NCBI GenBank assembly: GCA_035632635.1 | Contig: DASQGL010000074.1 | Coordinates: 4,601 to 68,600 of the forward strand | DNA length: 64,000 bases | Source of the DNA: Candidatus Limnocylindrales bacterium | GTDB taxonomy: Bacteria > Chloroflexota > Dormibacteria > CF-121 | Reading direction: 5' to 3' | Shown: positions 1,437 to 59,962 of the stretch, in pieces | How the letters are laid out: the number at the start of each line of letters is the position of its first letter | How positions within the stretch are numbered: position 1 is the stretch's first letter | Made by a program: the position numbers and the translations under genes | Notes under the pieces: generated by a model | Databases searched by the model: none | The model's input: the letters and a program-made list of their open reading frames with translations, nothing else | Told to the model about the DNA's origin: nothing

Positions 1437-1513
1437 CTTCGCGAATCGACACGAGGTGGACTCCCTTCCTCGCGGCGGGGAGTCCACCAGCTTTTACGGG
1501 CAAGAGGAGGAGG

Positions 1514-2548: not shown

Positions 2549-2566
2549 GAGAGGAGAGAAAAGGAT

Positions 2567-4788: not shown

Positions 4789-4807
4789 TTCGCGTAAGGA
4801 GGAGAAT

Positions 4808-28355: not shown

Positions 28356-29735
28356 GTGCAGGTCCTGGACACCATCCTGGACGCCGTCGGCGGGACGCCG
28401 CTGGTTCGCCTGCACCGCATCACGGCGTCGCTCAGACCGACCGTGCTGGCGAAGGTCGAAAGCCTGAACCCGGGCGGCAGCGTCAAGGATCGCATCGGGC
28501 TGCGCATGATCGAGGATGCGGAGCGCCGCGGCGTGCTCAAGCCGGGTGGCACGATCGTCGAGCCGACCTCGGGGAACACGGGACATGCGCTCGCCATCAC
28601 CGCGGCGATCAAGGGCTACCGGATGATCTTCGTCATGGCGGACAAGCAGTCGCCGGAGAAGATCGCGCTGCTCCGTGCCTACGGTGCCGAGGTCGTCGTC
28701 TGCCCGACCGCCGTACCGCGCGAGTCCCCGGAGAGCTACTACTCGGTCGCCGAGCGGCTCAGCCGCGAGATCCCCGGGGCGTACCAGCCGAACCAGTACT
28801 TCAATCCGGAGAATCCGCGGGCGCACTACGAGACCACCGGTCCGGAGATCTGGGAGCAGACGGACGGCCGGGTGGATGCCGTGGTCGGCGGGCTCGGGAC
28901 CGGCGGGACGATCACCGGCGTCGCGCGGTTCTTGAAGGAGCGCAAGCCGTCCGTGCAGATCATCGGGGCCGACCCCGAGGGCTCGCTCTACTCCGGCGAC
29001 ACCGTGCGCCCGTACAAGGTCGAAGGCATCGGCGAGGACTTCATCCCGGGAACCATCGATCTCGGCCTGATCGACCGCATCATCCGGGTCAGCGACCGGG
29101 ACTCGTTCCTGCTCGCCCGGCGCATCACGCGCGAGGAGGGCATCCTGGTGGGCGGCTCCGCCGGCACGGCGATGAAGGCGGCCCTCGAGGCCGCGGCCGG
29201 CATGGCCGAGGGAGAGCTGCTGGTGGTCATCCTGCCGGACACCGGCCGCAACAACCTGAGCAAGATCTACTCCGACGAGTGGATGCGGCAGAACGGCTTC
29301 CTCGAGCGCTTTCCCCGGCAACGCGTCCAGGACGTGGTCACGATGCGGGGGCGTGAGATCCCCGAGCTGATCACGGTCGCCTCGAACGAGAAGGTCGGAC
29401 GGGCGATCGACAGGCTGCAGGAATACGGGATCTCCCAGATGCCGGTCGTGCAGCCCGACGGCCGGGGCGCCGAGGTCAGCCTGGTGGGAAGCATCCAGGA
29501 ACGCACCCTGCTCGACCGCGTCTATCGCGATCCGGGCCTGATCGAGACCGAGGTGGGAGCCGCCATGGACGGCCCGTTCCCGACCATCAACGCGGGCGCC
29601 CACATCGACGAGGCGTTCAACACGCTGCTCAGCGGCGCGACCGCCGTGGTGGTGGTCGATGAGCGGAAGCCGGTCGGGATCATCACGCGGCTCGACCTCC
29701 TGGAGTTCATGGCGCACGCCCGCAGCTCCCCGTGA
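28356..29735 (+). CDS. cystathionine beta-synthase (PLP domain plus C-terminal CBS pair)
   Basis: It has a PLP-lysine region SLNPGGSVKDR, a tandem CBS domain at the C-terminus, and a GTG start. Confidence 0.85.
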   Translation: MQVLDTILDAVGGTPLVRLHRITASLRPTVLAKVESLNPGGSVKDRIGLRMIEDAERRGVLKPGGTIVEPTSGNTGHALAITAAIKGYRMIFVMADKQSPEKIALLRAYGAEVVVCPTAVPRESPESYYSVAERLSREIPGAYQPNQYFNPENPRAHYETTGPEIWEQTDGRVDAVVGGLGTGGTITGVARFLKERKPSVQIIGADPEGSLYSGDTVRPYKVEGIGEDFIPGTIDLGLIDRIIRVSDRDSFLLARRITREEGILVGGSAGTAMKAALEAAAGMAEGELLVVILPDTGRNNLSKIYSDEWMRQNGFLERFPRQRVQDVVTMRGREIPELITVASNEKVGRAIDRLQEYGISQMPVVQPDGRGAEVSLVGSIQERTLLDRVYRDPGLIETEVGAAMDGPFPTINAGAHIDEAFNTLLSGATAVVVVDERKPVGIITRLDLLEFMAHARSSP

Positions 29736-30889
29736 GCGAGCCCGAGTCCGGTTTCGCCACGCGGGCGATCCACGCCGGGCAGTCCCCGGACCCGTCGACC
29801 GGTGCGGTCGTCGTCCCCATCTACCAGACCTCGACCTATGCCCAGCCGGCGGTCGGCAAGCACCGGGGCTACGAGTATTCGAGGACGGCCAATCCGACCC
29901 GGACGGCGCTCGAGACCTGCCTCGCCGCGCTCGAGGGAGGGCGATTCGGTTTGGCCTTCGCCTCCGGCATGGCGGCGGAAGCGACCACCATGCGCCTGCT
30001 CTCCCCGGGCGATCACACGATCGCGGTCGACGACCTGTACGGGGGCACGTATCGCCTGTTCATGCGCGTGCTCGAGCCCATGGGGCTGGCCTTCAGCTTC
30101 GTCGACGGGTCACGACTCGAGTCGATCGAGAAGGCCTGGACGCCGCAGACCCGGATGGTCTGGATCGAGTCCCCGACGAACCCGCTGCTCAAGGTGGTCG
30201 ACATCCGGGCCATCAGCGACATCGCCCACCGACAGGGTGCCCTCCTCGTGGTCGACAACACGTTCTCGAGCCCATATTTTCAGCGCCCGCTCGCGCTCGG
30301 GGCGGACATCGTCGTCCACAGCGCCACCAAGTACCTGGGCGGTCACAGCGACACGATCGCGGGGGCCCTCGTCGTGGATCGCGAGGACCTGCGCGATCGC
30401 CTGGCCTTCTTCCAGAACGCCGCGGGCGCCGTGCCCGGGCCGATGGACGCCTGGCTCGTCCTGCGCGGGCTGAAGACGCTGGCGCTGCGCATGCAGGAGC
30501 ACGCGCGCAATGCCGCCGGGGTGGCCGAGTACTTGCGCGGGCACGCCCGAGTCGAACGCGTCTACTACCCGGGGCTCAAGGATCACCCGAACCACGCGCT
30601 CGCGCGGCGGCAGATGAGCGGATTCGGCGGGATGGTGTGCTTCGAGGTCACGGGCGGCCTGCCTGCGGCGCGCCGGGTGGTCGAGGCGACCCGGCTCTTC
30701 ACCCTGGCGGAAAGCCTCGGCGGGGTGGAGTCCCTGGTCGAGCTGCCCGCCGCCATGACCCATGCCTCGATCCCTCCCGAGGTGCGTCGGGCGCACGGCG
30801 TCGCGGACGGGCTGATCCGCCTCTCGGTCGGCATCGAGGATCTCGCCGATCTGATCTCGGACCTTGACCGGGCGCTCGCTGAAGCCTGA
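29732..30889 (+). CDS. cystathionine gamma-lyase / gamma-synthase family (Cys/Met metabolism PLP enzyme)
   Basis: A GTG start overlaps the CBS-synthase TGA. It has motifs AIHAGQ..., YSRTANPT and HSATKYLGGHSD. Confidence 0.85.
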   Translation: MSEPESGFATRAIHAGQSPDPSTGAVVVPIYQTSTYAQPAVGKHRGYEYSRTANPTRTALETCLAALEGGRFGLAFASGMAAEATTMRLLSPGDHTIAVDDLYGGTYRLFMRVLEPMGLAFSFVDGSRLESIEKAWTPQTRMVWIESPTNPLLKVVDIRAISDIAHRQGALLVVDNTFSSPYFQRPLALGADIVVHSATKYLGGHSDTIAGALVVDREDLRDRLAFFQNAAGAVPGPMDAWLVLRGLKTLALRMQEHARNAAGVAEYLRGHARVERVYYPGLKDHPNHALARRQMSGFGGMVCFEVTGGLPAARRVVEATRLFTLAESLGGVESLVELPAAMTHASIPPEVRRAHGVADGLIRLSVGIEDLADLISDLDRALAEA

Positions 30890-39706: not shown

Positions 39707-40125
39707 ACGGAGGCTAGAATCGCGGCTTTCGGAGCGAGGGGCGCACCGTGTAGCCGATCAGCAGGAGGCTCAGCAGCAGGCCGATCAGCATGCTGAGCGG
39801 ATTGAGCGGCAGGCCGGCGACGGAGGCCAGCAGGCCCAGGGCCGAGAAGAGCAGGGCCGTCATGCCGACCAGCCGGACCAGCCGATTGAAGGGGCTGCGG
39901 AACGGGAAATGCAGTCGAGGCCGGATGGACGGCAGCCGCCGCGGCGCCGGGACCGGTTCTGTCGATTCCCCCTCGCGGGCAAGCGACCGTGCGAGATTCT
40001 CAGCCAACCCGCCAGTTATAACGCCGGCCGGCCGGTCGTTCCGTGACGTCCTCGTTACACCCGGCTCCCGAACAGGTGACACCCCACCGCCGGGAGGCTG
40101 AGGGAGGCCCTTACCTATAATTCCT

Positions 40126-40521
40126 GTGATGGCGCTGACGGCGGTGGACCTGGCCACGGTGGAATCCGCCATGTCCGGCCAGTTCCCCTTCTGCTTCCCC
40201 AATACCACGCTCGCCCAGGCCGCACGCATGATGGCGCAGAACCGGGTGCTCGAGCTCCCGGTGATCGTCGACCAGCGTTGCCTCGGCTACATCTCGTATC
40301 TCGACATCCTCCAGCGCTACGTGAAAGCCAGGCTCGAAGCCCGCGCGACCGATATCATCCGGACGCCGCTTCCGGAGGTCCGGATCACCACGCCGCTCAA
40401 GGAGGCCGTGCGCGTCCTCCGCGAGACGGGCCGGCAACTCGTCCTCGTGACCACGCCCGAGGGCATGCCGCTCGGCGCGCTCACCGTCAAGGACCTGGCC
40501 GGCGCGCTGGGACGCCGCTGA
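40126..40521 (+). CDS. CBS-pair domain protein
   Basis: It is 131 aa with two CBS motifs. A TATAAT lies 7 nt upstream of ATG 40129, which suggests a leaderless transcript. The GTG at 40126 is alternative. Confidence 0.65.
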   Translation: MMALTAVDLATVESAMSGQFPFCFPNTTLAQAARMMAQNRVLELPVIVDQRCLGYISYLDILQRYVKARLEARATDIIRTPLPEVRITTPLKEAVRVLRETGRQLVLVTTPEGMPLGALTVKDLAGALGRR

Positions 40522-42725
40522 TGCCCACCCTCAGCAAGGTCACCCGGCCGCTGCTGGCCACGATCGCGGCGCAGGAGAGTGCCGCCGGCGCGCTGGCGCG
40601 CCTGCGCGCCTCCGACGCCGAGGCGCTGCTCGTGGTCCGGGACGGCGAGATCGCAGGGGTCTTCGGACATCGCGAGGCGGTGCATGCGCTCCTCGACGGC
40701 GCGGAGCCGGTCGAGCGCTACATGCGGCAGCCTTTGCCGAGCCGCTCGGTCGCGGACTCGATGGAGGCCGGCGCCGACATCATGTTCCGCGAGGACACCC
40801 CGTACGTGATCCTGACCCAGGACGAGGGCCCGCTGTTCCGCAAGACCGCCAGGCCGGTCGGGATGATGACGGCGTTCGAGGTCCTGGAAGAGATCGGCCG
40901 GACGACCACGGACACGGCCGCGAACAAGGTGTTCCTGGGGCGCCGGGACCTCGGCCTCAACGTTCCCGTGTCGCCTTGCCAGCGCGCCTGCCCGATCCAC
41001 CAGGACATCGCGACCTACGTCGACTACGTGTCGCAGGGACGCTACCTCGACTCCTGGCTGGTGATCCATGAGACGAACCCGTTCCCGTCGATGCTGGGCC
41101 GGCTGTGCAACCACCCGTGCGAGACCGACTGCAAGCGCGGCTGGGTGCAGGGCCCGGAGAACGCGGTCTCGATCAAGTCGATCAAGCGCTTCGCGACCGA
41201 CTACGCCTTTGCCCGCGGGGTGAAGATCCGCCACCAGCTCGCACCGGAGAACGGCCGGCGCGTGGCCATCGTCGGATCGGGCCCGGCGGGGCTGACCGCC
41301 GCCCAGGACCTCCGCCTGATGGGTTATGGCGTCGACCTCTATGAGCGCGAGGCGAAGCTGGGCGGCCTGCTCTCGGCGAGCATCCCGCATTTCCGCTTCG
41401 AGATGGACCAGCTGCTCTGGGAGATCGACATGATCGTGCAGATGGGCGTCACCGTGCACCTCAACGCGAATGTGGGCAAGGAGATCCCGCTGAGCGACCT
41501 GCTGGCGAAATACGACGCGGTCTTCGTGGCCGTCGGCATGATGACCGGCCGCATCCTGCCCGTTCCAGGCTCGGACCTGCCCGAGGTCATCTCGGCCATG
41601 GAGTTCCTTCGGGTCCGGTCCTACGACCGGATCCCGGACAGCTTCCCGAAGGGAGGCGACGTCGTGGTCATCGGCGGCGGCGCCGTGGCGACCGATGCCG
41701 CCCAGACCTCGATCAAGAGCGGGGCGCGTAAGGTCTGGATGGTCTCCATCGAGCCCGCCGACCGTCTGCCGGCCTTCGGCAATGAGCTGGTCGAGGCCCG
41801 TGAGATCGGGCTGACCCTGCACACCGGGGTGATCGTCAACGCGATCAAGGCGGACGAGCAGGGTCATGTCAACGGGGTGGAGTTCATCCGCGTGGACGAG
41901 AGCAAGCTCGAATTCGACCCCGAGAGCGGCAAGCTGCTCATCAACACGGTCCAGAAGCTGCCGGGCACCGAGCATGTGATTCCCTGCAAGTACGCGATTT
42001 TCGCCTCCGGCCAGATCATGGACTTCCAGGACAAGGAAACCCCACTCACCCCGCGTAAATTGATCGAGGCGGATACCGGCGGTCACACCAGGGTCGGCAA
42101 GCTCTTCGCAGGCGGCGACTGCGTCGAAGGACCGTCCTTCATCGTCAACGCGGTGGGCTGGGGGCATCGGGTTGCGCGCGCCATCAACGAGTTCCTCGGG
42201 GCGTCCGTGCCGCGTGACGCGAAGGCCCTGACCGTCATCGAGGCGACCGACGACCACCGGGAGGCGGACTACTACAATCGCGAGGAGCCGCCTATCCTGC
42301 CGCCCGAAAAGCGCATGGACATGACGCCGGTCGAGCTGCCCTGGAACGACGAGCAGGCGATCACCGCGGCCCTGCGCTGCTTCCAGTGCGACACGGTCCA
42401 CCACGTGGACGAATCCACCTGTATCCTGTGCGGGGCCTGCGATGACGTGTGCCCGGAGAAGGCGCTGGACGTCGTGGTCTACGGCGAATCCCGCGATACC
42501 TCCAGTGGCGGCTTCGTCGAGATCTGCAACACGGTGGTCGGCGAGGAGTTCGGGGGCAAGGCCGGCAAGATTCTGGTGAACTACGATCGCTGTACGAACT
42601 GTCGCATCTGTGAGGACCATTGCCCTGTGAACTGCATCACCTTCCAGCGTGTCCGATTCCGCGACGACGCCATGCAGATCATCCCCCTGACGCCGGTCGC
42701 GACGAAAGCGCCGGCAGGCGTTTGA
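40521..42725 (+). CDS. CBS-pair / GltD-like NAD(P)H-FAD oxidoreductase / 2x[4Fe-4S] ferredoxin fusion protein
   Basis: The ATG overlaps the upstream TGA (TGATG). It encodes 734 aa. The N-terminus carries a CBS pair. A GltD/DPD-type Fe-S helical region follows (CQRACPIHQDI...CNHPCETDCKRG). Two Rossmann motifs are present (VAIVGSGPAGL and VVVIGGGAVA). The C-terminus carries two CxxCxxCxxxCP ferredoxin motifs. Confidence 0.8.
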   Translation: MPTLSKVTRPLLATIAAQESAAGALARLRASDAEALLVVRDGEIAGVFGHREAVHALLDGAEPVERYMRQPLPSRSVADSMEAGADIMFREDTPYVILTQDEGPLFRKTARPVGMMTAFEVLEEIGRTTTDTAANKVFLGRRDLGLNVPVSPCQRACPIHQDIATYVDYVSQGRYLDSWLVIHETNPFPSMLGRLCNHPCETDCKRGWVQGPENAVSIKSIKRFATDYAFARGVKIRHQLAPENGRRVAIVGSGPAGLTAAQDLRLMGYGVDLYEREAKLGGLLSASIPHFRFEMDQLLWEIDMIVQMGVTVHLNANVGKEIPLSDLLAKYDAVFVAVGMMTGRILPVPGSDLPEVISAMEFLRVRSYDRIPDSFPKGGDVVVIGGGAVATDAAQTSIKSGARKVWMVSIEPADRLPAFGNELVEAREIGLTLHTGVIVNAIKADEQGHVNGVEFIRVDESKLEFDPESGKLLINTVQKLPGTEHVIPCKYAIFASGQIMDFQDKETPLTPRKLIEADTGGHTRVGKLFAGGDCVEGPSFIVNAVGWGHRVARAINEFLGASVPRDAKALTVIEATDDHREADYYNREEPPILPPEKRMDMTPVELPWNDEQAITAALRCFQCDTVHHVDESTCILCGACDDVCPEKALDVVVYGESRDTSSGGFVEICNTVVGEEFGGKAGKILVNYDRCTNCRICEDHCPVNCITFQRVRFRDDAMQIIPLTPVATKAPAGV

Positions 42726-42727
42726 GC

Positions 42728-43729
42728 ATGGCCGAGATCAACGTGGTCGACCGGATGACGCCGCTTGAATCGGCGACCCTGACCCGTCCGGCGTTGACCG
42801 CCTGGCGCGTGCTGCCCGTCCCCTTCTACATCCTTGTCCTGGCGCTGATCCGCGGCGATCTCGCGCATCCGCTCAGCGCTCCGGGCGACCTCTCCCTGCA
42901 CCTGTACTTCGGCGCGCTCATCCTCTACCTGGGCGGGATGCTGGCCTTCTTCGCCTATTTCGCCTATCGGCAGGACCTGTTCCGCTGGGTGGGGCTGGCG
43001 TTGGTCGTGCCGGGGGCCGCCGTGCACCTGCTGGCGATCGTGTTTCGCGGATTCGCGGACGGACACTACCCGCTGGCCAACATGTACGAATACAGCTCCA
43101 TGCTGGCGCTGGTCGCGGTCGCGGTCTTCCTGCTCATGACGATCCGCTATCCGGTGGCGGCGCTCGCCGGCGGGCTGGCGCTCTTCGTGGTGGTCGCCCT
43201 GATGGGACTGGGCTTCGCCCTCTACCAGTCGCCGGAACCCCTCGTCCCGGCGCTGCAGAGTTACTGGCTGAAGATCCACGTCACGAGCATGATGGTCTCC
43301 TCCGGGGTGCTCGTTTCCAGCTTCGTGTTCGCGGCGCTGTACCTGGTCAAGGACCGCAGCCTGCAGGTGAAATCGTGGCTGCACGATTCGGCGGTGGCCG
43401 TCCGCCTCCCGTCGCTGGAGACGCTGGACCGGCTCACCTTCCGGGCTATCCTGCTCGGGTTCCCGATCTGGACGTTCGGCACCATGGCCGGGGCGATCTG
43501 GGGTGAGCATGCCTGGGGACGGTGGTGGGGCTGGGATCCGAAGGAGACCTGGGCCGCCATCACCTGGATCGTGTACGCGATCTACCTCCACGCGCACAGC
43601 CTGCGCGCCTGGCGGGGGCGGCGCACGGCGCTGATCGCCACCGCGGGGTTCATCTCGATCCTGGTGACGCTCTACGCCGTCAACCTCTGGATCGTGGGCC
43701 TGCACTCATACGCCCGGGGGGCGGGCTAG
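42728..43729 (+). CDS. CcsA/ResC-family cytochrome c assembly (heme-handling) membrane protein
   Basis: It has the W-rich WWD-like motif WGRWWGWDPKETW, multiple TMs and conserved His residues. It starts 3 nt after the upstream gene. Confidence 0.75.
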   Translation: MAEINVVDRMTPLESATLTRPALTAWRVLPVPFYILVLALIRGDLAHPLSAPGDLSLHLYFGALILYLGGMLAFFAYFAYRQDLFRWVGLALVVPGAAVHLLAIVFRGFADGHYPLANMYEYSSMLALVAVAVFLLMTIRYPVAALAGGLALFVVVALMGLGFALYQSPEPLVPALQSYWLKIHVTSMMVSSGVLVSSFVFAALYLVKDRSLQVKSWLHDSAVAVRLPSLETLDRLTFRAILLGFPIWTFGTMAGAIWGEHAWGRWWGWDPKETWAAITWIVYAIYLHAHSLRAWRGRRTALIATAGFISILVTLYAVNLWIVGLHSYARGAG

Positions 43730-43779: not shown

Positions 43780-45030
43780 GTGAAGTTCAGGCCGCGGATC
43801 ATCCGGGCGGCGCCCAGCCACACCTCGGAGGCGCTCAGCCCGTCCTGGCGCACGAGCCTGTACGCGACCTGCTTCGCGCAGATGACCGCCATGCTCGCCT
43901 TCGGATTCGTCCTGCCCTTCCTCGCCCTCTACCTGAAGGAGCTTGGGGTCCAATCCGACCGGGCGATCGAGCTCTGGTCCGGCGCGCTGGTCGCCTCGAC
44001 CGCGGTCTCGCTGGCGATCTTCAGTCCGGTCTGGGGCGCGCTCGCCGACCGGCGGGGCCGCAAGCTCATGGTGCTGAGGGCGATGATCGCCGGCGGATTC
44101 GTGCTTGCCGCCATGGGATTCGTGCAGAACGTCTTTGAGTTGCTCGGACTGCGAATCCTGCAGGGAGCGGTGACCGGCACGGTCGCGGCCTCCACCGCCC
44201 TCGTCTCCACGATCGTGCCCAAAGATCGGCTCGCTTACAGCATGGGGTTGCTGCAGACCAGCATCTACCTGGGCATCTCGGGCGGTCCCGTGGTCGGCGG
44301 GGTGATCGCCGAGGCGGTCGGTATCCGCGGCACGTTCATCGTGGCCGGCATCCTGTTGGCCAGCGCCGGGCTGGCGATCTGGCTCTTCGTGCACGAGCAT
44401 TACCTGCCGCTCACGACCCAGCGGCGGCCTGGATTCTTGCAGTCGATGCGGGCCGGCCTCCAGTCCCAAACCCTGATGCCCCTGCTGGTGGTCGTCATGC
44501 TCATCCAGCTCAGTTCCGCGATCGTGTTTCCGATCCTGCCGCTGTTCGTGGCCAACATCAGCGGCCCGCAGGATCCGGTCAAGCTCTACTCGGGCCTGGC
44601 GTTTGGCGCAACCGCGGTCTTCAGCGCGCTGGCCGCGGTCTCCTACAGTCGCGTCGTCGAGCGGAGCGGGTATCGCCGGCTCCTCGTCTTCGCCGCCTTC
44701 GCCGCGGCCGCCTTCTTCCTCCCCCAGGCGTTCGTGCGGACGCCCGGCCAGCTGCTCTTGCTTCGAGCCGGGCTCGGGCTCTTCTTCGGCGTCCTGATCC
44801 CGGCCACCAACGCGATGGTGGGGCTGGGGACGCCGGGCAACCTTCGTGGGTCCGCCTACGGGTTGACCAGCAGCGCCACGGCGATGGGCAATGCGATCGG
44901 CCCACTGATCGGATCCGTGCTGGCAGCCACGCTCGGCCTGCGGGCGATCTTCATCGCCACGGCCGGCGTGCTCGCCCTGCTGGGGGTGTGGATCATCGGG
45001 CTCGTGCGCGAACCGGTCACGCCGGCGTGA
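43780..45030 (+). CDS. MFS transporter
   Basis: GTG start; 12 TMs; it has ADRRGRK (motif A-like). Confidence 0.75.
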   Translation: MKFRPRIIRAAPSHTSEALSPSWRTSLYATCFAQMTAMLAFGFVLPFLALYLKELGVQSDRAIELWSGALVASTAVSLAIFSPVWGALADRRGRKLMVLRAMIAGGFVLAAMGFVQNVFELLGLRILQGAVTGTVAASTALVSTIVPKDRLAYSMGLLQTSIYLGISGGPVVGGVIAEAVGIRGTFIVAGILLASAGLAIWLFVHEHYLPLTTQRRPGFLQSMRAGLQSQTLMPLLVVVMLIQLSSAIVFPILPLFVANISGPQDPVKLYSGLAFGATAVFSALAAVSYSRVVERSGYRRLLVFAAFAAAAFFLPQAFVRTPGQLLLLRAGLGLFFGVLIPATNAMVGLGTPGNLRGSAYGLTSSATAMGNAIGPLIGSVLAATLGLRAIFIATAGVLALLGVWIIGLVREPVTPA

Positions 45031-50941: not shown

Positions 50942-51074
50942 CGCCGGCGCCCAGGTCCTGACCAGGGCCTGCTGACGCGCGTTCCCCGCGGCGCATCCCG
51001 CTCGGGCTGGACAGTCGGCGCTCTGGGTGCTATACCGCTTACGGCAGGCGGAATCGGTCTAAGGAGGGATGCCC

Positions 51075-51578
51075 ATGCGTCAGCGGGTCTCGATGACCAT
51101 CAACGGCGCGCGCTACGAGCACGAGGTCGAGCCTCGGACGCTCCTCGTCCATTACATCCGGGAGCAGGCGGGCCTCACGGGAACCCACATCGGCTGCGAC
51201 ACCAGCAACTGCGGCGCCTGCACGATCGAGATGGACGGTCACAGCGTGAAGTCCTGCACCGTCTTCGCGGTCCAGGCCAACGGCAGTCAGCTCCTCACCA
51301 TCGAGGGACTCGCCAACGGGACCCAGCTGCACCCGTTGCAGCAGGCGTTCTGGGACGAGCACGGCCTGCAGTGCGGCTACTGCACTCCGGGCATGATCAT
51401 GGCCGCCCGCCAGCTGCTGGCGCGGAATCCGAACCCGAGCGAGCGGGAGATCCGGCTCGGAATCGAAGGTAATCTCTGCCGCTGCACCGGATACCACAAC
51501 ATCGTCAAAGCGATCCAGACGGCCGCCCGGGTCATGGGCGAGGGCGCCAAGCGGAAATCGCCGGCCACGGTTTCGTGA
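51075..51578 (+). CDS. coxS: [2Fe-2S]-binding small subunit of a molybdenum hydroxylase (CoxS/CutS-like)
   Basis: Motifs [10 protein letters not shown] and CGYCTPG...CRCTGY. An SD AAGGAGGG lies 6 nt upstream of the ATG. Confidence 0.85.
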
Positions 51579-51596
51579 GCGCGGGAGGGATGTGAA

Positions 51597-53948
51597 ATGG
51601 CTGTCTCCCAGATGATCGGCGCCTCCATCAAGCGTCGCGAGGATCCCGAGCTGGTGACGGGTACCGGCTCCTTCGTCGACGACCTGCCCCAGACGGCGGT
51701 CCTCTACATGCACGTCGTGCGCAGCACCGAGCCTCACGCGCGCATCCTTGGAATCGAGACGGCGCGGGCGAAGGAAGCCGGCGGCGTGGTGGCCATCTAC
51801 ACCGGGAAGGACCTGCGCCAGGAATTCCAGTCGCCGCTCCCGGTGACCGTGACCTTCGTCCCCGAGAAGAAGGTCCCCGACCAGTACCCGATCGCGGTTG
51901 ACAAGGTGCGCTATGTGGGGGAGCCGGTCGCCATCGTGCTGGCCACAAGCCGCGCCGCCGCCGAAGACGCCGCCGAGCGGGTCGAGGTCCGCTACGAGGC
52001 GCTCCCCGCCGTGACCGACATCGAGGCCGCGATCGCCAAGGGCGCGCCGGTGATCCACGAGAGTCTCGGCTCCAACCTGTCCTATGACGTGCAGCGGTCG
52101 GCCGGCGACATCGATGCTGCCTTCCGCGAGGCCGAGGTGACGGTCAAGCAGCGGCTCCAGCAGCAGCGGCTGATCCCGATCGCGGTCGAGACCCGTGGCG
52201 TCGTCGCCGACTACCGGCGCTTCGCCAACAGCCTGACCGTCTGGTCCTCGACCCAGATCCCGCACTTCGTCAAGGTCTGGCTGGCGGTCATCCTGGGCAT
52301 CCCGGAGAGCCAGGTGCGCGTGGTCGCGCCCGACGTGGGCGGCGGCTTCGGTTCGAAGATCCGGGTCTACCCCGAGGAAGTGCTGACCGCGCTGGCGTCG
52401 CGCAAGGCCGGCCGGCCGGTCAAGTGGATCGAGGACCGCGAGGAGAACATGCGCGCGACCCACCACGGCCGCTCCCAGATCTGGGACGTCGAGATCGCGG
52501 CCAAGAAGGACGGGACCGTCCTCGGGCTGCGGGCCACCCAATGGCTCGACCTGGGCGCCTACTGCTCGCAATTCGGCACCTTCCAGACGATCGGCCTGCT
52601 GGTCGTGCAGGGTCCCTACCGCCTCAAGGCTCTCGACGGGCGGCTGGTTGGCATCTTCACGAACCGGACTCCGACGGACGCCTATCGCGGGGCCGGCCGG
52701 CCGGAGGCGACCTATGTCATCGAGCGCGTCATGGACCTCGTCGCCCAGGCCACGGGACTCGACCCGGCGGCCGTGCGGCGCAAGAACCTGGTGCGAGCGG
52801 ACGAGCAGCCATTCACCAGCCTGCTCGGCTTCACTTACGACTCGGGTGACTACAGGGCCGGGCTCGACCGTGCCCTCGAGCTGGTCGGCTACGAGAAGCT
52901 GCGCCAGGAACAGGCCGAGGGACGCAAGCATGGACGGTACATGGGCATCGGGCTGGCCAGCTATCTCGAGATCTGCGGGCTCGGCCCCGCCGCGCCGACC
53001 CAGGCCAACACGGGCGTCTCCCTGTGGGGCATGGGGGTGGTCCGCCTGCACTTCACCGGCAAGGCCACCGCGATCACGGGCAGCTCACCCCACGGCCAGG
53101 GGCACGAGACCACGTTCTCGCAGATCGTGTCCGATGTCATCGGCATTCCACCCGAGGACGTGGACGTGATCCATGGCGACACCGCGAACGGGCCGATGGG
53201 CATGAACACGTACGGCAGCCGCAGCACCGCCCTGGACGGGAACGCGGTGCACATCTCGGCCACCCGGGTTCGGGACAAGGCCAAGAAGATCGCGGCCCAT
53301 CTGCTCGAGGCCGCCGAGGACGACATCGTCTACGAGCAGGGCAAGGCGTTCGTCAAGGGGTCGCCGTCGAAATCGGTGACGATCCAGGAAATCGCGATGG
53401 CGTCCTTCCAGACGAACCGGATCCCCCCGGGTATGGAGGGCGGACTCGAGGCGACGACCTTCTACGATCCCACGAACTTCGTCTGGCCGTTCGGGACGCA
53501 TGTCTGCGTGGTGGAGGTCGATCCACAGACGGGCGCCGTGCGCATCGCGCGCTACCTGGCGCTCGACGACTGCGGCACCCGGATCAACCCGATGGTGGTC
53601 AACGGGCAGATCCACGGAGGGATCGCCCAGGGCATCGGCCAGGCGTTGCTCGAGGAGGGGGTGTACGGCGACGACGGCCAGCTGAAGACGGGCACGCTCG
53701 TCGACTACCTGATCCCGAGTGCCGCGGACCTTCCCTTCTTCGAGCTCACGGAGACGATCACCCCGAGCCCGGTCAACCCGCTCGGGGTCAAGGGCATTGG
53801 GGAGGCGGGCACGATCGCCTCGACGGCGGCAACCATCAACGCCGTGGTCGACGCCCTGCAGCCGTTCGGCGTCAAAGACGTCGACATGCCGGCGAGCCCG
53901 GCGAAGGTCTGGCAGCTGATGCATCGCAACGGAGGGAAGAAAGCATGA
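51597..53948 (+). CDS. coxL: molybdopterin-binding large subunit, form-II CoxL-like (AYRGAGR active-site loop)
   Basis: It is 783 aa and belongs to the xanthine dehydrogenase family. Its loop TDAYRGAGRPE matches the form-II/putative CODH type rather than form-I VAYRCSFR. An SD GGGAGGGA is present. Confidence 0.85.
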   Translation: MAVSQMIGASIKRREDPELVTGTGSFVDDLPQTAVLYMHVVRSTEPHARILGIETARAKEAGGVVAIYTGKDLRQEFQSPLPVTVTFVPEKKVPDQYPIAVDKVRYVGEPVAIVLATSRAAAEDAAERVEVRYEALPAVTDIEAAIAKGAPVIHESLGSNLSYDVQRSAGDIDAAFREAEVTVKQRLQQQRLIPIAVETRGVVADYRRFANSLTVWSSTQIPHFVKVWLAVILGIPESQVRVVAPDVGGGFGSKIRVYPEEVLTALASRKAGRPVKWIEDREENMRATHHGRSQIWDVEIAAKKDGTVLGLRATQWLDLGAYCSQFGTFQTIGLLVVQGPYRLKALDGRLVGIFTNRTPTDAYRGAGRPEATYVIERVMDLVAQATGLDPAAVRRKNLVRADEQPFTSLLGFTYDSGDYRAGLDRALELVGYEKLRQEQAEGRKHGRYMGIGLASYLEICGLGPAAPTQANTGVSLWGMGVVRLHFTGKATAITGSSPHGQGHETTFSQIVSDVIGIPPEDVDVIHGDTANGPMGMNTYGSRSTALDGNAVHISATRVRDKAKKIAAHLLEAAEDDIVYEQGKAFVKGSPSKSVTIQEIAMASFQTNRIPPGMEGGLEATTFYDPTNFVWPFGTHVCVVEVDPQTGAVRIARYLALDDCGTRINPMVVNGQIHGGIAQGIGQALLEEGVYGDDGQLKTGTLVDYLIPSAADLPFFELTETITPSPVNPLGVKGIGEAGTIASTAATINAVVDALQPFGVKDVDMPASPAKVWQLMHRNGGKKA

Positions 53949-54805
53949 TTCCGGCGGCCTTCGATTACGTGGCGCCGCGCACCCTGCCCGAGGCGGTCGC
54001 CGAGCTGGTCAAGCACGGCTCGGAAGCCAAGGTGCTGGCCGGCGGGCACAGCCTGATCCCCCTCATGAAGCTGCGGCTGAGCACCCCGTCGTTTCTGGTC
54101 GACATCGGGCATATCAAGGACCTCAGCTACATCCGCGAACAGGACGGCCACATCGTGCTCGGCGCCCTGACCACGCATCACGACATCGAGTTCTCCGACC
54201 TGATCGTTGCGAAGCTACCCCTCCTGCAGCGGGCCGCCACCCAGATCGGCGACCCCCAGGTCCGCAACCGCGGCACCGTCGGCGGCGCCGCCGCGCACGC
54301 CGATCCGAACGGGGACTTCCCGACCTGTCTGCTGGCGCTGGACGCGGAGTTCGTGGCGGTGGGTCCGCGCGGGGACCGCCTGATCAAGGCCCGCGACTTC
54401 TTCGTCGATACGTTCACGTCGGCGCTGGAGCCGGACGAGGTGTTGCGCGAGATTCGCATCCCGACGCCGCCCGCCGGTACCCGATCCACCTACGTCAAGT
54501 TCAGCCGGCGATCCCAGGACTGGGCGATCGTGGCCGTGGCCGCCCAGGTCACGGTCCGGGATGGGAAGGTCGAGCGGGTCGCGGTCGGACTGACCGGCAT
54601 GGGCCCGACGCCGCTGCGCGCGGCCGCGACCGAACGGGCGCTCGCCGGCAAACCGGCCACGCCACAGGCGCTCTCCGAGGCGGCGGGCCACGCCGCCGAC
54701 GGGATGGAGCCGCCGGAGGACCTGAACGGCACGCCCGAGTATCGCCGCCATCTGGCATCGGTCCTCACCCGTCGCGCGCTGGAGGAGCTGACCGCGTCGA
54801 AGTAG
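53945..54805 (+). CDS. coxM: FAD-binding medium subunit (CoxM/CutM-like)
   Basis: The ATG overlaps the coxL TGA (ATGA). It has an FAD_binding_5 domain with AGGHSL. S-L-M gene order is typical of form II. Confidence 0.85.
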   Translation: MIPAAFDYVAPRTLPEAVAELVKHGSEAKVLAGGHSLIPLMKLRLSTPSFLVDIGHIKDLSYIREQDGHIVLGALTTHHDIEFSDLIVAKLPLLQRAATQIGDPQVRNRGTVGGAAAHADPNGDFPTCLLALDAEFVAVGPRGDRLIKARDFFVDTFTSALEPDEVLREIRIPTPPAGTRSTYVKFSRRSQDWAIVAVAAQVTVRDGKVERVAVGLTGMGPTPLRAAATERALAGKPATPQALSEAAGHAADGMEPPEDLNGTPEYRRHLASVLTRRALEELTASK

Positions 54806-54827
54806 CCATCTCGAACAGGCGCTCGTG

Positions 54828-54859
54828 AAGCCGGCGGCCTCGCCGCCGGCTTTTCATTC
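54828..54859 (+). terminator. rho-independent terminator after coxM
   Basis: The stem AAGCCGGCGG/CCGCCGGCTT has a 5-nt loop and is followed by TTCATTC. Confidence 0.6.
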
Positions 54860-54901
54860 GCGTCGCCCCGTGCGGTGGCGTCAGCCCGCCGTCTCCGCGA
54901 C

Positions 54902-56605
54902 CTAGCCCACCAGCGCGGGGCCCGCGGCGGCCGGCAGGCGCAGGATGCTTCCGCTCGCCTGGAGCGCGACAAGCGGCGGGCCGACGTGGTGCAAGGTCCG
55001 GTGGGACGCGGACGTGACCGGCTTGGGAAAGGTGGTCAGCGGGTGCCGGAGTACGGTCTTCTCGACACCTTCGAGCATGGCGGTGTTGTGCACGAAGCCC
55101 GCGCCGCTCTGGATGTCGGCCGCGCTGGTGGACGGGTGGCCCCCCCACGGCGTCCCGATGCCGAAGCCCCAGGCTGCCCACAGGTTCAGGCTGACGGTTC
55201 CGTAGCGCAGATCCACCAGCGCCTGCTCGAGGGCGACTGCGACCCGGGGGTCACGCAGGCTCCGGGGCGACACGACCACGGTCGCGCTCAGCGTGCCCCA
55301 GACCCGCTCGTTGAGGAAACGGACCGCCTGCTCGAGAAAGGCGACCGGGTCGTCCGCGGGCAGCGACGTGTGGGAGAGGATGGCGCAGAACGGCTCGCGC
55401 CGGAAGGCCACCTCGTCGTCCGCCGCAGGATCGAGGTCGGGGAGCAGCGTCCAGGGCAGCGCGCCGTCCGCTGCGCCCGGGGAGGCGGTCACCGTGCGAT
55501 GCCGCGCGGTCAGCTCGCGCCACCGTTCCTCGGACCCCGGGTAGTACGCCTGGCGAACCGGGGTCCGGGCGAGCGCCGCCTCGATGCCGCGAAGCAGCTC
55601 AGGTCCCTGGCCGAAGCCGCGGGCCGTCACCAGCAGCTTGTTCGCGTTGCAGTTGAAGGACGCGTTGTTCGTCACGCCGCCCGCGATGTGGTCGGCCTGC
55701 CACTGCAGCTGACGCGGCCGGTAGTCCCCGGGGACGACGATGACCGGCGAGATGCTCCCCAGCTCCGCCGTGACCGGCTTGGAGAGCACCGGCCGCCGCT
55801 GCGCCTTGCGCAGCTCCTGCTCGGGACCCGGCGGGCCGAACACCAGCGCCTCGTAGGTCCGGTCGGAGCCCGTGATGTGAATCTCGTCCACCGCCGGGTG
55901 GGCGGCGAGGTAGGCGCCCTCCTCCGCGCCGCCGTAGACGATGGCGAGGAATCGCTGGCGAATGGCATGCTCGAATGCCTGCTCCAGGAGCGGCCCGAGG
56001 TAGGCGTTGACCGGGTGCATCTTCAGGATGCACACCTTCCCCTCGTTGAACAGCTTCGTCGCCACGTCGAGTGGCGGGATCGCGTTGACGTTGCCGGCGC
56101 CGAGCACCAGGACGCAGGCCGGTCGCCCCGCATGGCCGTCCCGGTAGAAGGACGCGCGCTGGTCGGCGGCCGCCCCGCGGCGCAGGTGCACCTCGGCCCG
56201 CAGCGAGGGGAAGACCGCCCAGTCCAGCGCGCCGCCCGGGTAGACGCGCACCGACACGCGGGAGTCGATGGTTTCCCGAAGGCCCCCGACGCGCGTCGAG
56301 CCCGTCCGCGCGATGGCTCGCAGCGCGTCGTGCCATTGCCGCAGGAGGGTCAGGGTGATGACCGGACCCGAAAGCCATTCCTCGCCTTCGGCAGGCGTGC
56401 CCAGGGGAATCCGTTTCGCCAGGCAGGCGAGGTGGACGCTCGGCTTGGCAATGCCCGCGTAGCCGCGGCGCATGGACTCGACCAGCGCGATCCGCTGGGT
56501 GATGGGCAGCCGCACGAAGGCGGCCGCCCCCTCCTGGAGCCGCGCCAGCGCGGCGTCCATCGCGGCCTGCCGCGTCGGGCCGGGCGCAGCAACCGTAGCA
56601 GCCAT
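54902..56605 (-). CDS. aldehyde dehydrogenase superfamily protein (atypical, 567 aa)
   Basis: It has ELGSISP (ELGGKSP-like) and a catalytic-Cys region NASFNCNANK. The start is either 56605 or MDAAL at ~56560. Confidence 0.65.
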   Translation of the reverse strand: MAATVAAPGPTRQAAMDAALARLQEGAAAFVRLPITQRIALVESMRRGYAGIAKPSVHLACLAKRIPLGTPAEGEEWLSGPVITLTLLRQWHDALRAIARTGSTRVGGLRETIDSRVSVRVYPGGALDWAVFPSLRAEVHLRRGAAADQRASFYRDGHAGRPACVLVLGAGNVNAIPPLDVATKLFNEGKVCILKMHPVNAYLGPLLEQAFEHAIRQRFLAIVYGGAEEGAYLAAHPAVDEIHITGSDRTYEALVFGPPGPEQELRKAQRRPVLSKPVTAELGSISPVIVVPGDYRPRQLQWQADHIAGGVTNNASFNCNANKLLVTARGFGQGPELLRGIEAALARTPVRQAYYPGSEERWRELTARHRTVTASPGAADGALPWTLLPDLDPAADDEVAFRREPFCAILSHTSLPADDPVAFLEQAVRFLNERVWGTLSATVVVSPRSLRDPRVAVALEQALVDLRYGTVSLNLWAAWGFGIGTPWGGHPSTSAADIQSGAGFVHNTAMLEGVEKTVLRHPLTTFPKPVTSASHRTLHHVGPPLVALQASGSILRLPAAAGPALVG

Positions 56606-56612
56606 TGCTACG
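56594..56612. promoter_or_regulatory. 19-bp palindrome CGTAGCA-N5-TGCTACG (copy 1) at the ALDH start / ATPase stop
   Basis: The site lies in the context GCAACCGTAGCAgccatTGCTACG. The arms are perfect 7-bp inverted repeats. Confidence 0.5.
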
Positions 56613-56615
56613 AGC

Positions 56616-57800
56616 CTAGCCCTCGACGCCCTGGCGGAGCAGGAAGTCGCGATAGAGCGGGAGGCTGAACGCGACCTCTCCCCGCTCGGCCGGCCGGTAC
56701 AGCTGGCCCCGCTCGACCAGCCGCGCGATCGAGGCCCGCAGCAGCGCCCGGCTCCCCGGCCAGGTGACGGCTTCGATCCGGGCGCGCTCGCCGACCCGGG
56801 CGATCGCCAGCAGCGCCTCCCGCTCGGCCCGCGGGAGCTTGCGGAAACGCCCTTCGAAGAAGCTCTCGTCCAGCTCGTTCAGGAGCAGCGGCCGGAGCAG
56901 CTCCAGGGCGTCGACGTCGAATCGATCCTCGTCGGGGACGCTCTCGATCAGGAAGGAGGCATAGTACTGGAGGAAGTAGGGATACCCACGCGTCTCGGCC
57001 ACGATCCGCTCGATCAGCGCCGGTGAGAAGGTCACCGACGAACGGCCCAGCGGACGCGTGATCGCGGCCCGGGCGTCGGTGGGCTCGAGATTGTCCAGGC
57101 GAAAGACGACCAGGTCCCGCTCGAGGTAGCTGCGACTCTTCACGATGTTGGGAATGACGGTCGGCAGGCCGCTGACCACGAGGACGACCGGCAGCCCCTT
57201 CAGTTGGACGCGCTTGACCGCGTTGAAAAGCGTGGCCAGGGGCGCCTGGCCCTTGCGGCGGCCATCCCAGACTTCGTGGAACTCGTCGTAGAAGAGCAGG
57301 AGACCCTTGTGCTGATGACGGACGACCGGCATCAGCTCGTCGAACATCCGGACCAGCCGGTCGGTGGGGGGCGCGGGCGGCTCCTTCGCATAAGCCGGAC
57401 TGTAGGTGATGCCCCAGGCGGCGACGTCCTTGGGCCGGAACGTCTCGACCAGGCGGCGGCCGGTCCGGCGCATGCGCAGTGCGAGCGAGGCGCCCGTCCC
57501 CACCCGCAGGAGATCGCTGGCGGTCGCGCGCACGAGCGCCGCCGTCTCGTTCAGGGTCTCGTCGAGCTCGCGCTCTGCCGAGAGCCAGCCGTTCAGCTGG
57601 GCCAGCTTGCGGAACTCTCCGAGCAGGACGGTCTTCCCCGTCCCGCGCAGTCCGGTGAGCACCACGTGGCGCGGCACACGCGTGGCGCGCTTCAGGTGCC
57701 GTTCGAAGGCTCCGAGCATCGCATCTCGACCGGCGAGGAAGGGTGGAGGGTAGCCGGCCCCCGGCGTGAACGGGTCGCGGATCGCTCGCGGGCTCGCCAC
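56616..57800 (-). CDS. Orc1/Arch-type AAA ATPase (Arch_ATPase/DUF234-like)
   Basis: It has a Walker A GLRGTGKT and a Walker B LLFYDEF, with a C-terminal winged-helix-like region. The start is GTG 57800. The alternative overlapping frame 56608..57816 is Arg/Pro-rich and was rejected. Confidence 0.7.
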   Translation of the reverse strand: MASPRAIRDPFTPGAGYPPPFLAGRDAMLGAFERHLKRATRVPRHVVLTGLRGTGKTVLLGEFRKLAQLNGWLSAERELDETLNETAALVRATASDLLRVGTGASLALRMRRTGRRLVETFRPKDVAAWGITYSPAYAKEPPAPPTDRLVRMFDELMPVVRHQHKGLLLFYDEFHEVWDGRRKGQAPLATLFNAVKRVQLKGLPVVLVVSGLPTVIPNIVKSRSYLERDLVVFRLDNLEPTDARAAITRPLGRSSVTFSPALIERIVAETRGYPYFLQYYASFLIESVPDEDRFDVDALELLRPLLLNELDESFFEGRFRKLPRAEREALLAIARVGERARIEAVTWPGSRALLRASIARLVERGQLYRPAERGEVAFSLPLYRDFLLRQGVEG

Positions 57801-57808
57801 GTAGCAAC

Positions 57809-57827
57809 CGTAGCACGCGTTGCTACG
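57809..57827. promoter_or_regulatory. 19-bp palindrome CGTAGCA-N5-TGCTACG (copy 2) in the divergent ATPase / coxD promoter region
   Basis: The site lies in the context GCAACCGTAGCAcgcgtTGCTACG, 9 nt upstream of the ATPase GTG start and ~20 nt upstream of the TAGAAT element of coxD. Confidence 0.5.
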
Positions 57828-57860
57828 GGCATTGGCTGGTCACCTTAGAATGGGTGGGCG

Positions 57861-58757
57861 ATGGAAGGCCTGCCGTTTTCGACCATCGAGGAGGTCGAAG
57901 ACGCCCTCCGCGAGCATCATTACGTCGCCGGGCGCGAGCTTGCCACCACGATCTTCCTGGGCCTCAAGCTCGACAAGCCGCTCCTGCTCGAGGGGGAGGC
58001 CGGCGTGGGCAAGACGGAGGTCGGCAAAGTGCTCGCCGACATCCTCCAGGCCGACCTGATCCGCCTGCAGTGCTACGAGGGCATCGACATCAACAACGCC
58101 GTCTACGAATGGGCGTACGCGCGCCAGATGCTGCACATCCGGCTGCTCGAAACCCAGGCCGCCGATCGCGCCGCGATGGAACGCGAGATCTTCAGCCCCA
58201 GCTTCCTGGTCAAGCGCCCGCTGCTCCAGGCGATCGAGCACGGCGGCGCGCGACCACCCGTGCTCCTGATCGACGAGATCGACCGGTCGGACGACGAATT
58301 CGAGGCGTTCCTGCTCGAGCTGCTCTCGGACTTCCAGATTTCGATCCCCGAGATCGGGACGATCCGGGCGGAGCGTCCGCCCGCGGTGGTGATCACCTCC
58401 AACCGCACCCGCGAGATCCATGACGCGCTCAAGCGGCGGTGCCTCTACTTCTGGATCGACTATCCGAGCGTCGACCGGGAATTCGAGATCGTCCAGGCCA
58501 GGATCCCGGACGTGCCGCGACGGCTCAACCGCCAGGTGACCCGGTTCATCGCCCAGGTCCGCCAGCTCGACCTCTACAAGCTGCCCGGCATCGCCGAGAC
58601 CCTGGACTGGACCCGCGCCCTGCTGGCCCTGGGCGAGACCGAGCTGAGCGAGCACGCGGTGCAGGCCACCCTGGGGTCGATCGTCAAGTACCAGGAGGAT
58701 CTCGCCCGGTTGCGCGGCGAGCAGACCCGGACGCTGCTCAAGGCCTCGGGTGCCTGA
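57861..58757 (+). CDS. coxD: MoxR-family AAA ATPase (CoxD-like)
   Basis: It has a Walker A LEGEAGVGKT and a Walker B LLIDEIDR. A TAGAAT lies 9 nt upstream of the ATG. Confidence 0.85.
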   Translation: MEGLPFSTIEEVEDALREHHYVAGRELATTIFLGLKLDKPLLLEGEAGVGKTEVGKVLADILQADLIRLQCYEGIDINNAVYEWAYARQMLHIRLLETQAADRAAMEREIFSPSFLVKRPLLQAIEHGGARPPVLLIDEIDRSDDEFEAFLLELLSDFQISIPEIGTIRAERPPAVVITSNRTREIHDALKRRCLYFWIDYPSVDREFEIVQARIPDVPRRLNRQVTRFIAQVRQLDLYKLPGIAETLDWTRALLALGETELSEHAVQATLGSIVKYQEDLARLRGEQTRTLLKASGA

Positions 58758-59931: not shown

Positions 59932-59962
59932 AAGCGCCCGGCGGGCTGGGTACACTCGATCC

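Follow-up and report, generated by a model that had tools for sequence, protein, structure and literature searches.

A two-part CBS module attached to a putative electron-wire flavoprotein of the GltD/NfnB type in Limnocylindria and Dormibacteria

A GltD/NfnB-type flavoprotein body joined through a linker to a 2x[4Fe-4S] ferredoxin at the C terminus is a known layout, found in PRK12771 proteins, DsrL, StnC-type proteins and the NAD(P) oxidoreductase subunits of anammox-type complexes. The domain order of DsrL is an N-terminal iron-sulfur (Fe-S) domain, a flavin adenine dinucleotide (FAD) domain with an embedded NAD(P) domain, a linker and the C-terminal 2x[4Fe-4S] ferredoxin, and the protein docks on DsrAB (PMC7596348). 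A model of the Kuenenia complexes places the NAD(P) oxidoreductase subunit on the cytoplasmic face, where its FAD is reached through four clusters (PMC12954380), and the role of this subunit in the anammox Rieske/cytochrome b complexes has been discussed (PMC12954380, PMC5600118). In the non-bifurcating StnC, K170 is a Lys ligand of the FAD-proximal cluster, a position at which NfnB has a Glu (PMC10482914). Here we describe a flavoprotein of this layout from Candidatus Limnocylindrales bacterium, encoded between a gene for a CBS-pair protein and a gene for a CcsA/ResC protein in a 64-kb stretch of contig DASQGL010000074.1 (the window, that is, the whole stretch of DNA that was analysed; G+C content 65-72%). 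What is new in this locus is a clade-specific two-part CBS add-on; the catalytic architecture is already known. On balance, and with some reserve, we favour the view that the protein is a CBS-gated, NADH-preferring, non-bifurcating electron-wire flavoprotein of the GltD/NfnB plus linker plus ferredoxin type.

The locus comprises three co-oriented open reading frames (ORFs) at 40126-43729 (+), which had been proposed in a first-pass annotation of the same DNA and which proved to be real and closely packed. A stand-alone CBS-pair (Bateman) protein of 131 aa (40126..40521, +; Pfam CBS) comes first, and its stop codon overlaps the start codon of the flavoprotein gene in the sequence TGATG. The flavoprotein gene (40521..42725, +), with Pfam matches to Fer4_20, Pyr_redox_2 and two Fer4 domains in its 734-aa product, ends at 42725 and is separated by a 2-nt spacer from a gene starting at 42728 that encodes a 333-aa CcsA/ResC system II cytochrome c synthase subunit (42728..43729, +), recognized by TIGR03144, its WWD motif and its His residues. 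The flavoprotein begins with a predicted divergent CBS pair (residues 1-135; 40521..40925, +), recognized by profile, hhalign and AlphaFold, and continues with a GltD/NfnB-type helical Fe-S domain (residues 150-232; 40968..41216, +), delimited by Pfam Fer4_20 at 151-232 and by alignment to 9bov_A, and with FAD and NAD(P)H Rossmann domains (residues 245-560; 41253..42200, +; Pfam Pyr_redox_2 at 247-546). A linker (residues 561-628; 42201..42404, +), characterized by the invariant R619-C620-x-x-C623 and its counterpart RCLEC in 9bov_A, leads to the C-terminal 2x[4Fe-4S] ferredoxin domain (42405..42650, +; Pfam Fer4, Fer4_7 and Fer4_10), which contains an insert of ~46 residues and has its two Fer4 motifs at residues 628-707. 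Pfam agrees in this with the first-pass description of a helical Fe-S domain, FAD and NAD(P)H folds and a double ferredoxin, and likewise finds no TIM-barrel domain in the 734-aa protein.

The accompanying claim that this architecture matches no described system does not stand: the NCBIfam model NF009410/PRK12771 aligns end to end with residues 150-708 (model positions 47-562 of 566; 393.8 bits), ferredoxin included. The first-pass annotation had itself named an alignment of this kind with an established family as the outcome that would overturn its claim, and since the layouts of NF009410, DsrL and the Rieske/cytochrome b subunits are known, that is largely what was found, the CBS modules excepted. 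Judged by its sequence, the 734-aa protein is a divergent relative, not a certified member, of the NF009410 'NAD(P)-binding protein' subfamily. Among solved structures, the highest sequence scores (199-222 bits) were obtained with the GltD-like parts of 9bov_A, 9n5u_A and 8oh5_C (StnC), followed by NfnB and GltD chains at 160-199 bits and by dihydropyrimidine dehydrogenase (DPD) at 83 bits. An AlphaFold (AF2) model of residues 136-734, computed from a 52-sequence alignment, reached a predicted local distance difference test score (pLDDT) of 88.8, exceeding 90 in the Rossmann region, and a predicted template modelling score (pTM) of 0.89. In Foldseek comparisons this model aligned with StnC/NfnABC chains over ~615-650 columns (TMq 0.71), which cover body, linker and ferredoxin, and with NfnB, GltD and DPD over ~430-450 columns, with TMt values of 0.77-0.80 to NfnB and GltD chains.

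Conservation among 52 sequences, reaching down to ~30% identity, outlines the probable cofactor sites. Residues C153, C157, C196, C200 and C204 are invariant, as are the linker motif R619-C620-x-x-C623, which aligns with the RCLEC of 9bov_A, and both C-x2-C-x2-C-x3-C-P motifs of the ferredoxin (C634/637/640/644 and C691/694/697/701). Within the clade K222 never varies, and across the family it is almost invariant; aligned with 9bov_A/StnC, it corresponds to K170, and R292 corresponds to R239. Because Lys222 stands in place of the Glu ligand of NfnB, the flavoprotein is probably non-bifurcating. Alignment to the NADPH-binding 9bov_A further indicates that the YRR motif, which contacts the 2'-phosphate of NADPH, is replaced by S409-I410-E411. 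An S/T-x-E pattern at this site has been reported for the NADH-preferring DsrL-1 (PMC7596348), and since the replacement found here follows that pattern, the protein is probably NADH-specific or NADH-preferring. Of the canonical motif, the first two Cys are absent from the N-terminal Fe-S domain, and Pfam matched Fer4_20 at profile positions 30-111 only; C620 and C623 of the linker, being invariant, may complete the distal cluster of this domain.

Bateman (CBS-pair) modules, for example those of AMPK gamma, IMPDH and plant CBSX, are built of two tandem CBS motifs per module. Two such modules had been called at this locus, one in the stand-alone protein and one at the N terminus of the flavoprotein, and both calls are borne out. 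In the stand-alone protein, Pfam CBS (PF00571) matches in two stretches with 68.9 bits against a cut-off of 24. Like known Bateman modules, this protein has ribose-binding G-h-h-S/T-x-x-D motifs, the second of which (G-h-h-T-x-x-D/E) is present in all relatives and the first (G-h-h-S-x-x-D) in the Limnocylindria-type group; G54, Y55, D60, G117 and T120 are invariant in the alignment. The start chosen by the gene caller on the identical public contig is ATG 40129, giving a protein of 130 aa. For the fused N-terminal pair, Pfam alone gives a marginal match (15.2 bits, E 0.027, below the cut-off), and precomputed CBS matches exist for the same domain in six homologues. With hhalign, the family profile of residues 1-135 matched the stand-alone CBS proteins at 96.2% probability (E 2.4e-9, 115 columns, both motifs), and against solved structures it matched CBS proteins down to E 1.9e-11. 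The top solved matches (9sr9, 9znf and others) include archaeal ribosome hibernation factors (checked for 9sr9), which are relevant as CBS folds only. AlphaFold produced two beta-alpha-beta-beta-alpha units for the N-terminal domain with pLDDT 82-90; in a model of the full-length flavoprotein with 30 close homologues, the core had a mean pLDDT of 59 and the CBS domain alone was usable. On the evidence of profiles and model, the N-terminal domain is a divergent CBS pair. With a mean column identity of 55% it varies much more than the catalytic body (75%), and its ligand motifs have in part degenerated, with G46-x-x-G49 instead of G-x-x-S/T. The pairing of a degenerate with a canonical module, as at this locus, resembles other CBS hetero-assemblies. 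In a library clustered at 50% identity a single representative covers the CBS-fused clade, and all other library matches (<=314 bits, 30-40% identity) begin at about residue 150 of the query and lack the N-terminal CBS pair. Nowhere in the literature searched was a GltD/NfnB-type flavoprotein with a fused CBS pair described.

When a single genome was scanned for each species, a relative of the flavoprotein was identified in 136 genomes, from which 80 loci were kept: 30 Limnocylindria-type loci (group A, 81-88% identity) and 50 Dormibacteria loci (group B, 55-61% identity). The query clade is supported at 100% in a neighbour-joining tree with 100 bootstraps. The gene order is LigD(-), M20, CBS, flavoprotein, CcsA, (MFS), TldD, PmbA in group A and amino-acid permease(-), unknown soluble protein, CBS, flavoprotein, cytidine/tRNA-type deaminase in group B. 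A stand-alone CBS ORF precedes the flavoprotein gene at every one of the 75 informative loci of both groups; its end overlaps the flavoprotein start in 69 of them and lies 3-4 nt before it in the other 6. The ccsA gene is found directly downstream of the flavoprotein gene in all group A loci with downstream sequence (28/28), in none of the group B loci (0/50), and in a further locus of 70% identity (L004) whose upstream genes differ; of 32 spacers, 23 measure -1 to +2 nt. Because the CBS gene is paired with the flavoprotein gene throughout and ccsA only in group A, the conserved unit consists of the CBS protein and the CBS-flavoprotein. The link to CcsA is specific to the Limnocylindria-type class, and since the predicted co-transcription of ccsA is limited to Limnocylindria, CcsA is not an obligate partner. 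In group B the gene immediately before the CBS gene encodes a protein of 210-306 aa without a Pfam family (e.g., L002 6821-7453 and L003 6417-7337, with 48 further Dormibacteria loci); it was considered as a membrane partner and rejected, being soluble and highly charged.

In the mechanism that we favour, single electrons would pass between NAD(H) and a partner by way of the FAD, two N-terminal clusters and the two C-terminal [4Fe-4S] clusters, with the partner docking on the ferredoxin domain. The fused degenerate CBS pair and the canonical stand-alone CBS protein would combine into a hetero-Bateman module; this module would bind an adenosine-type ligand (AMP, ADP, ATP or S-adenosylmethionine) and gate the enzyme. 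Domain make-up, conservation and synteny are the observations on which this scheme is built; the cofactor count, the nucleotide preference and the partner are deductions. By analogy with relatives, a membrane haem protein would be the leading candidate for the physiological acceptor. A regulatory role for the N-terminal position is plausible, since one homologue carries a response-regulator receiver domain there and Nitrospirae relatives have an upstream CBS gene. Several points weigh against this proposal. The CBS-CBS heteromer and its gating by a ligand are suggested by gene overlap and motifs, and the fused CBS pair, its ligand motifs being degenerate, may be purely structural. The N-terminal domain offers only two Cys for its distal cluster, and Pfam gives no match to the linker segment RCFQC as a relocated Fer4_20 motif, so that the assignment of C620 and C623 as the remaining ligands is suggested by their invariance and not by Pfam. 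The NF009410 score falls short of the curated cut-off of 516, and the position of the clade within the flavoprotein family has a bootstrap value of 22% in the neighbour-joining tree. Lastly, no redox partner is conserved beside the flavoprotein gene across both groups.

Outside the clade, the partners of family members vary, which suggests a plug-in electron wire. A Nitrospirae operon (P0249) consists of CBS, flavoprotein, Rieske and cytochrome b genes, a Thermincola flavoprotein gene (P0274) precedes Rieske, cytochrome b and cytochrome c genes, and a Brocadiaceae-like operon has the order Rieske, flavoprotein, cytochrome b, subunit IV-like and multihaem cytochromes, which is the arrangement of the Kuenenia complexes. 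Other members are fused N-terminally to 2-oxoacid:ferredoxin oxidoreductase domains (POR_N, TPP_enzyme_C), and one (L175 1429-4477) carries its response-regulator receiver domain where the clade has its CBS pair, with a cytochrome b gene directly downstream; add-ons other than CBS were recorded for the proteins P0263, P0282 and P0312. A separate CBS gene upstream of the flavoprotein gene occurs outside the clade in the Nitrospirae group only (L008, L009, L092), and is thus not a general trait of the family.

These neighbourhoods raise the alternative that the flavoprotein is the detached cytoplasmic subunit of a Rieske/cytochrome b complex, or another cytochrome b complex, that is encoded elsewhere in the genome; it would then join the quinone pool to NAD(H), in the way that has been proposed for anammox complexes. 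Rieske and/or cytochrome b genes adjoin P0249, P0274, P0408 and P0263, which are among the best-scoring relatives outside the clade, and all eight close metagenome loci (8/8) have the same context. Members associated with Rieske/cytochrome b genes also score higher against the query (~245-295 bits, two outliers apart) than other full-length members (184-238 bits), and the role of the NAD(P) oxidoreductase subunit has been discussed in the literature (PMC12954380, PMC5600118). However, the best single match, P0245 from Scalindua, stands alone, away from such genes, and in the tree the clade does not branch within the Rieske/cytochrome b group. Moreover, the window contains no Rieske/cytochrome b gene, and in 79 of the 80 loci none is found up to 8 kb from the flavoprotein gene, the sole exception being an unrelated cytochrome b gene 5 kb upstream in one locus. 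We therefore regard a detached subunit of this kind as unlikely.

The third gene of the locus encodes a protein that, by sequence, is an ordinary haem-handling subunit of system II. It matches Pfam Cytochrom_C_asm with E 1.4e-47 and passes the equivalog model TIGR03144 for system II CcsA/ResC (232.6 bits against a cut-off of 187.6). In orthologues down to 50% identity the WWD motif (W258-G264-W267-D270-P271-K272-E273) and five His residues (H100, H113, H184, H288 and H326) are invariant. The CcsA part of an earlier CcsA/HemX-like label is upheld by TIGR03144; the HemX-like part is not, as no hemA or hemC gene lies in the window, and a Bacillus-type HemX was rejected because there are no hem genes in the window or the related loci. 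The conserved hemX beside hemA/hemC that the first-pass annotation had foreseen as an alternative outcome was accordingly not seen. Its observation that ccsA has no ResB neighbour does hold: no match to the ResB, hemA or hemC families was found among the ~55 window ORFs scanned against Pfam, and no ResB gene adjoins ccsA in the annotated related neighbourhoods, a genome-wide search for ResB lying outside the present analysis. Orthologues at 44-48% identity (L005 7001-8475 and L174 7001-8029) are likewise not beside ResB; one of them overlaps a gene for a ResA-like thioredoxin and the other stands alone. This CcsA subfamily occurs without an adjacent ResB in three contexts besides the present one; as a rule its genes may lie away from ResB, or its proteins may function without ResB. 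The window also contains a Caa3_CtaG gene, which suggests the production of c-type cytochromes.

In CcsBA and CcmF, haem b is bound by transmembrane His residues. If the same held for CcsA here, the ferredoxin domain of the flavoprotein could dock on its cytoplasmic face and pass electrons from NADH to haem at the transmembrane His site, thereby keeping the iron in the ferrous state for haem export and for thioether formation, in a variant of system II without an adjacent ResB. Such docking would mirror the modelled docking of the homologue on cytochrome b. The regular occurrence of ccsA directly after the flavoprotein gene (28 of 28 Limnocylindria-type loci, and L004), the spacing of mostly -1 to +2 nt with no terminator between the genes, the related operons in which the flavoprotein gene is followed by a cytochrome b gene, directly or after one intervening gene, and the three other contexts of CcsA without ResB are all consistent with this idea, as is the haem b binding of CcsBA and CcmF. 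Yet ccsA is nearby in none of the 50 Dormibacteria loci, where it is found elsewhere, with a ResA-like thioredoxin, and the CcsA protein itself looks canonical; given how close the group A genomes are to one another (81-88% identity), the shared gene order may be no more than common inheritance. A flavoprotein that reduces haem on CcsA is for these reasons unlikely, and the fuller proposal for Limnocylindria, in which the flavoprotein would supply NADH reductant to CcsA-bound haem in a ResB-independent and adenylate-controlled system II, is improbable. The broader first-pass suggestion of a membrane-associated, haem-linked electron module remains a minority view: it gains indirect support because related flavoproteins are encoded beside cytochrome b genes, and is weakened because the adjacency to CcsA is confined to one class.

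A role as the NfnB-type subunit of a bifurcating transhydrogenase, or as the beta subunit of an NADP-dependent formate dehydrogenase, is very unlikely. The name 'formate dehydrogenase (NADP+) beta subunit' is among those given to homologues at JGI, and NfnB chains are good structural matches (TMt ~0.8), but no gene for an NfnA-like protein or a formate dehydrogenase alpha subunit occurs in any neighbourhood, Lys222 replaces the Glu ligand of NfnB, YRR is missing, and the NCBIfam models for glutamate synthase, AegA, YgfT and YgfK all score far below their cut-offs.

At the start of the window, 35 kb from the flavoprotein gene, lies a reductive pyrimidine-catabolism cluster (21-6256) with genes for an NCS1 nucleobase permease, a luciferase-like monooxygenase (LLM) family oxidoreductase, a carbon-nitrogen hydrolase, a dihydropyrimidinase (TIGR02033, 609 bits) and a methylmalonate-semialdehyde dehydrogenase. 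The LLM oxidoreductase, beside the dihydropyrimidinase, matches the F420-dependent model TIGR03842 with 441 bits against a cut-off of 295, and no PreT or PreA gene was found in the cluster; the F420-type enzyme may replace dihydropyrimidine dehydrogenase there. The first-pass idea that the flavoprotein is the PreT-like half of a dihydropyrimidine dehydrogenase serving this pathway, prompted by a cluster with permease, dihydropyrimidinase, hydrolase and semialdehyde dehydrogenase but no PreT/PreA and by the fold common to DPD domains I-III, can be dismissed as extremely improbable, since the gene is 35 kb away, DPD is a distant match (83 bits, against ~200-220 for StnC/Nfn-type proteins), no PreA-like TIM-barrel gene occurs in the window or in the 80 related loci, the conserved neighbours of the flavoprotein gene are CBS, ccsA or deaminase genes, and the F420-dependent oxidoreductase is the better candidate for the missing reductase.

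A scan for promoters and terminators gave nothing above chance at the locus, and no terminator-like site was found between 40126 and 44762. A perfect TATAAT is present within 40117-40129, 4 nt before GTG 40126 and 7 nt before ATG 40129, and was passed over by the consensus promoter scan because it has no -35 match; given its position, the CBS gene may be translated from a transcript with no leader or almost none. Positions 39714-40007 (-), just ahead of the CBS gene and divergent from it, encode a small protein with a hydrophobic C-terminal tail and no Pfam family. This protein is conserved over ~97 residues at 50-63% identity in 30 of 30 Limnocylindria-type loci and weakly in L004, and no homologue was found in the Dormibacteria loci. 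On the other side, ccsA is followed on the same strand by MFS, TldD and PmbA genes. The first of these, encoding a major facilitator superfamily (MFS) transporter (43780..45030, +; Pfam MFS_1), starts 50 nt downstream of ccsA, is present in most but not all Limnocylindria-type loci, and is probably co-transcribed with the upstream genes, with no obvious part in their function.

Two other clusters were observed in the window. At 51069-61989 there is a Mo-hydroxylase cluster with a CoxS-like [2Fe-2S] subunit, a large subunit and accessory genes of the AAA (CoxD-like), CoxE-like VWA and XdhC/CoxF-like types. The large subunit scores 748 bits with the glyceraldehyde dehydrogenase alpha model and 709 bits with the aerobic CO dehydrogenase model, both below their cut-offs, and a medium FAD subunit was not located in the cluster. 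At 28356-30889 a cystathionine beta-synthase (PALP with its own CBS pair) adjoins a cystathionine gamma-lyase-type gene whose start overlaps the end of the first gene by 4 nt, in what looks like a reverse transsulfuration pair.

Flavoproteins built of body, linker and ferredoxin serve as plug-in NAD(P)H wires for DsrAB, Rieske/cytochrome b complexes and 2-oxoacid oxidoreductases, and the electron wire proposed here would occur widely among abundant lineages of soil and freshwater (136 species-level genomes), together with a dedicated two-part CBS sensor. If it is indeed gated by a ligand, it would offer a clear case of metabolite control over such a wire, and also a tractable soluble model for a poorly understood subunit of the anammox complexes. 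A functional link to CcsA would bear on how system II keeps haem reduced. Otherwise the gain is practical: the labels 'formate dehydrogenase beta subunit' and 'FAD-dependent oxidoreductase' can give way to a better one.

Set beside system II CcsA/ResC, the third protein passes the family cut-off and keeps the WWD motif and its flanking His residues, but its gene has no adjacent ResB/CcsB gene and, in Limnocylindria, is preceded by the flavoprotein gene. With NfnB/SudA, GltD and DPD domains I-III (PreT), the flavoprotein has in common the FAD/NAD(P)H Rossmann pair and the helical Fe-S domain; unlike it, these proteins lack the linker and the fused C-terminal ferredoxin, and DPD inserts a flavin mononucleotide TIM barrel that is absent here. 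It departs from bifurcating NfnB in having K222 and not Glu, S-I-E and not YRR, and no NfnA-like neighbour. The large subunits of StnC/NfnABC (8oh5_C, 9bov_A, 9n5u_A; PMC10482914) are its best solved matches in both sequence and fold, with the Lys ligand position, R239/R292 and the RC-x-x-C after the flavin domain in common. However, they start with a [2Fe-2S] domain and continue into a NuoG/formate dehydrogenase-like domain, both absent here, and they bind NADPH through YRR and use HydBC-like subunits, neither of which is a feature of this locus. The flavoprotein has the domain order of DsrL (PMC7596348) with an extra CBS pair in front, and its S-I-E fits the pattern of the NADH-type DsrL-1. 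It differs from DsrL in its shorter linker (~68 aa vs ~100), in the first two Cys positions of the N-terminal domain, which are missing outright and not substituted, and in the presence of CBS modules; no sulfite-reductase/dsr genes were found among the scanned window ORFs or the annotated related loci. The anammox-type Rieske/cytochrome b subunits (Kustd1480-1485, Kuste4569-4574; PMC12954380, PMC5600118) have the same layout of body, linker and ferredoxin, at 30-37% identity over residues 150-715. Both have the FAD, the nucleotide site and a chain of four Cys clusters ending in the ferredoxin, and the Glu at the third position of the YRR site is the family consensus. Limnocylindria and Dormibacteria are generally described as aerobic soil bacteria, not anaerobes like the anammox hosts. 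The anammox-type subunits are encoded in Rieske/cytochrome b operons, of which the window holds none, whereas the present clade has in addition the N-terminal CBS pair and the coupled CBS protein.

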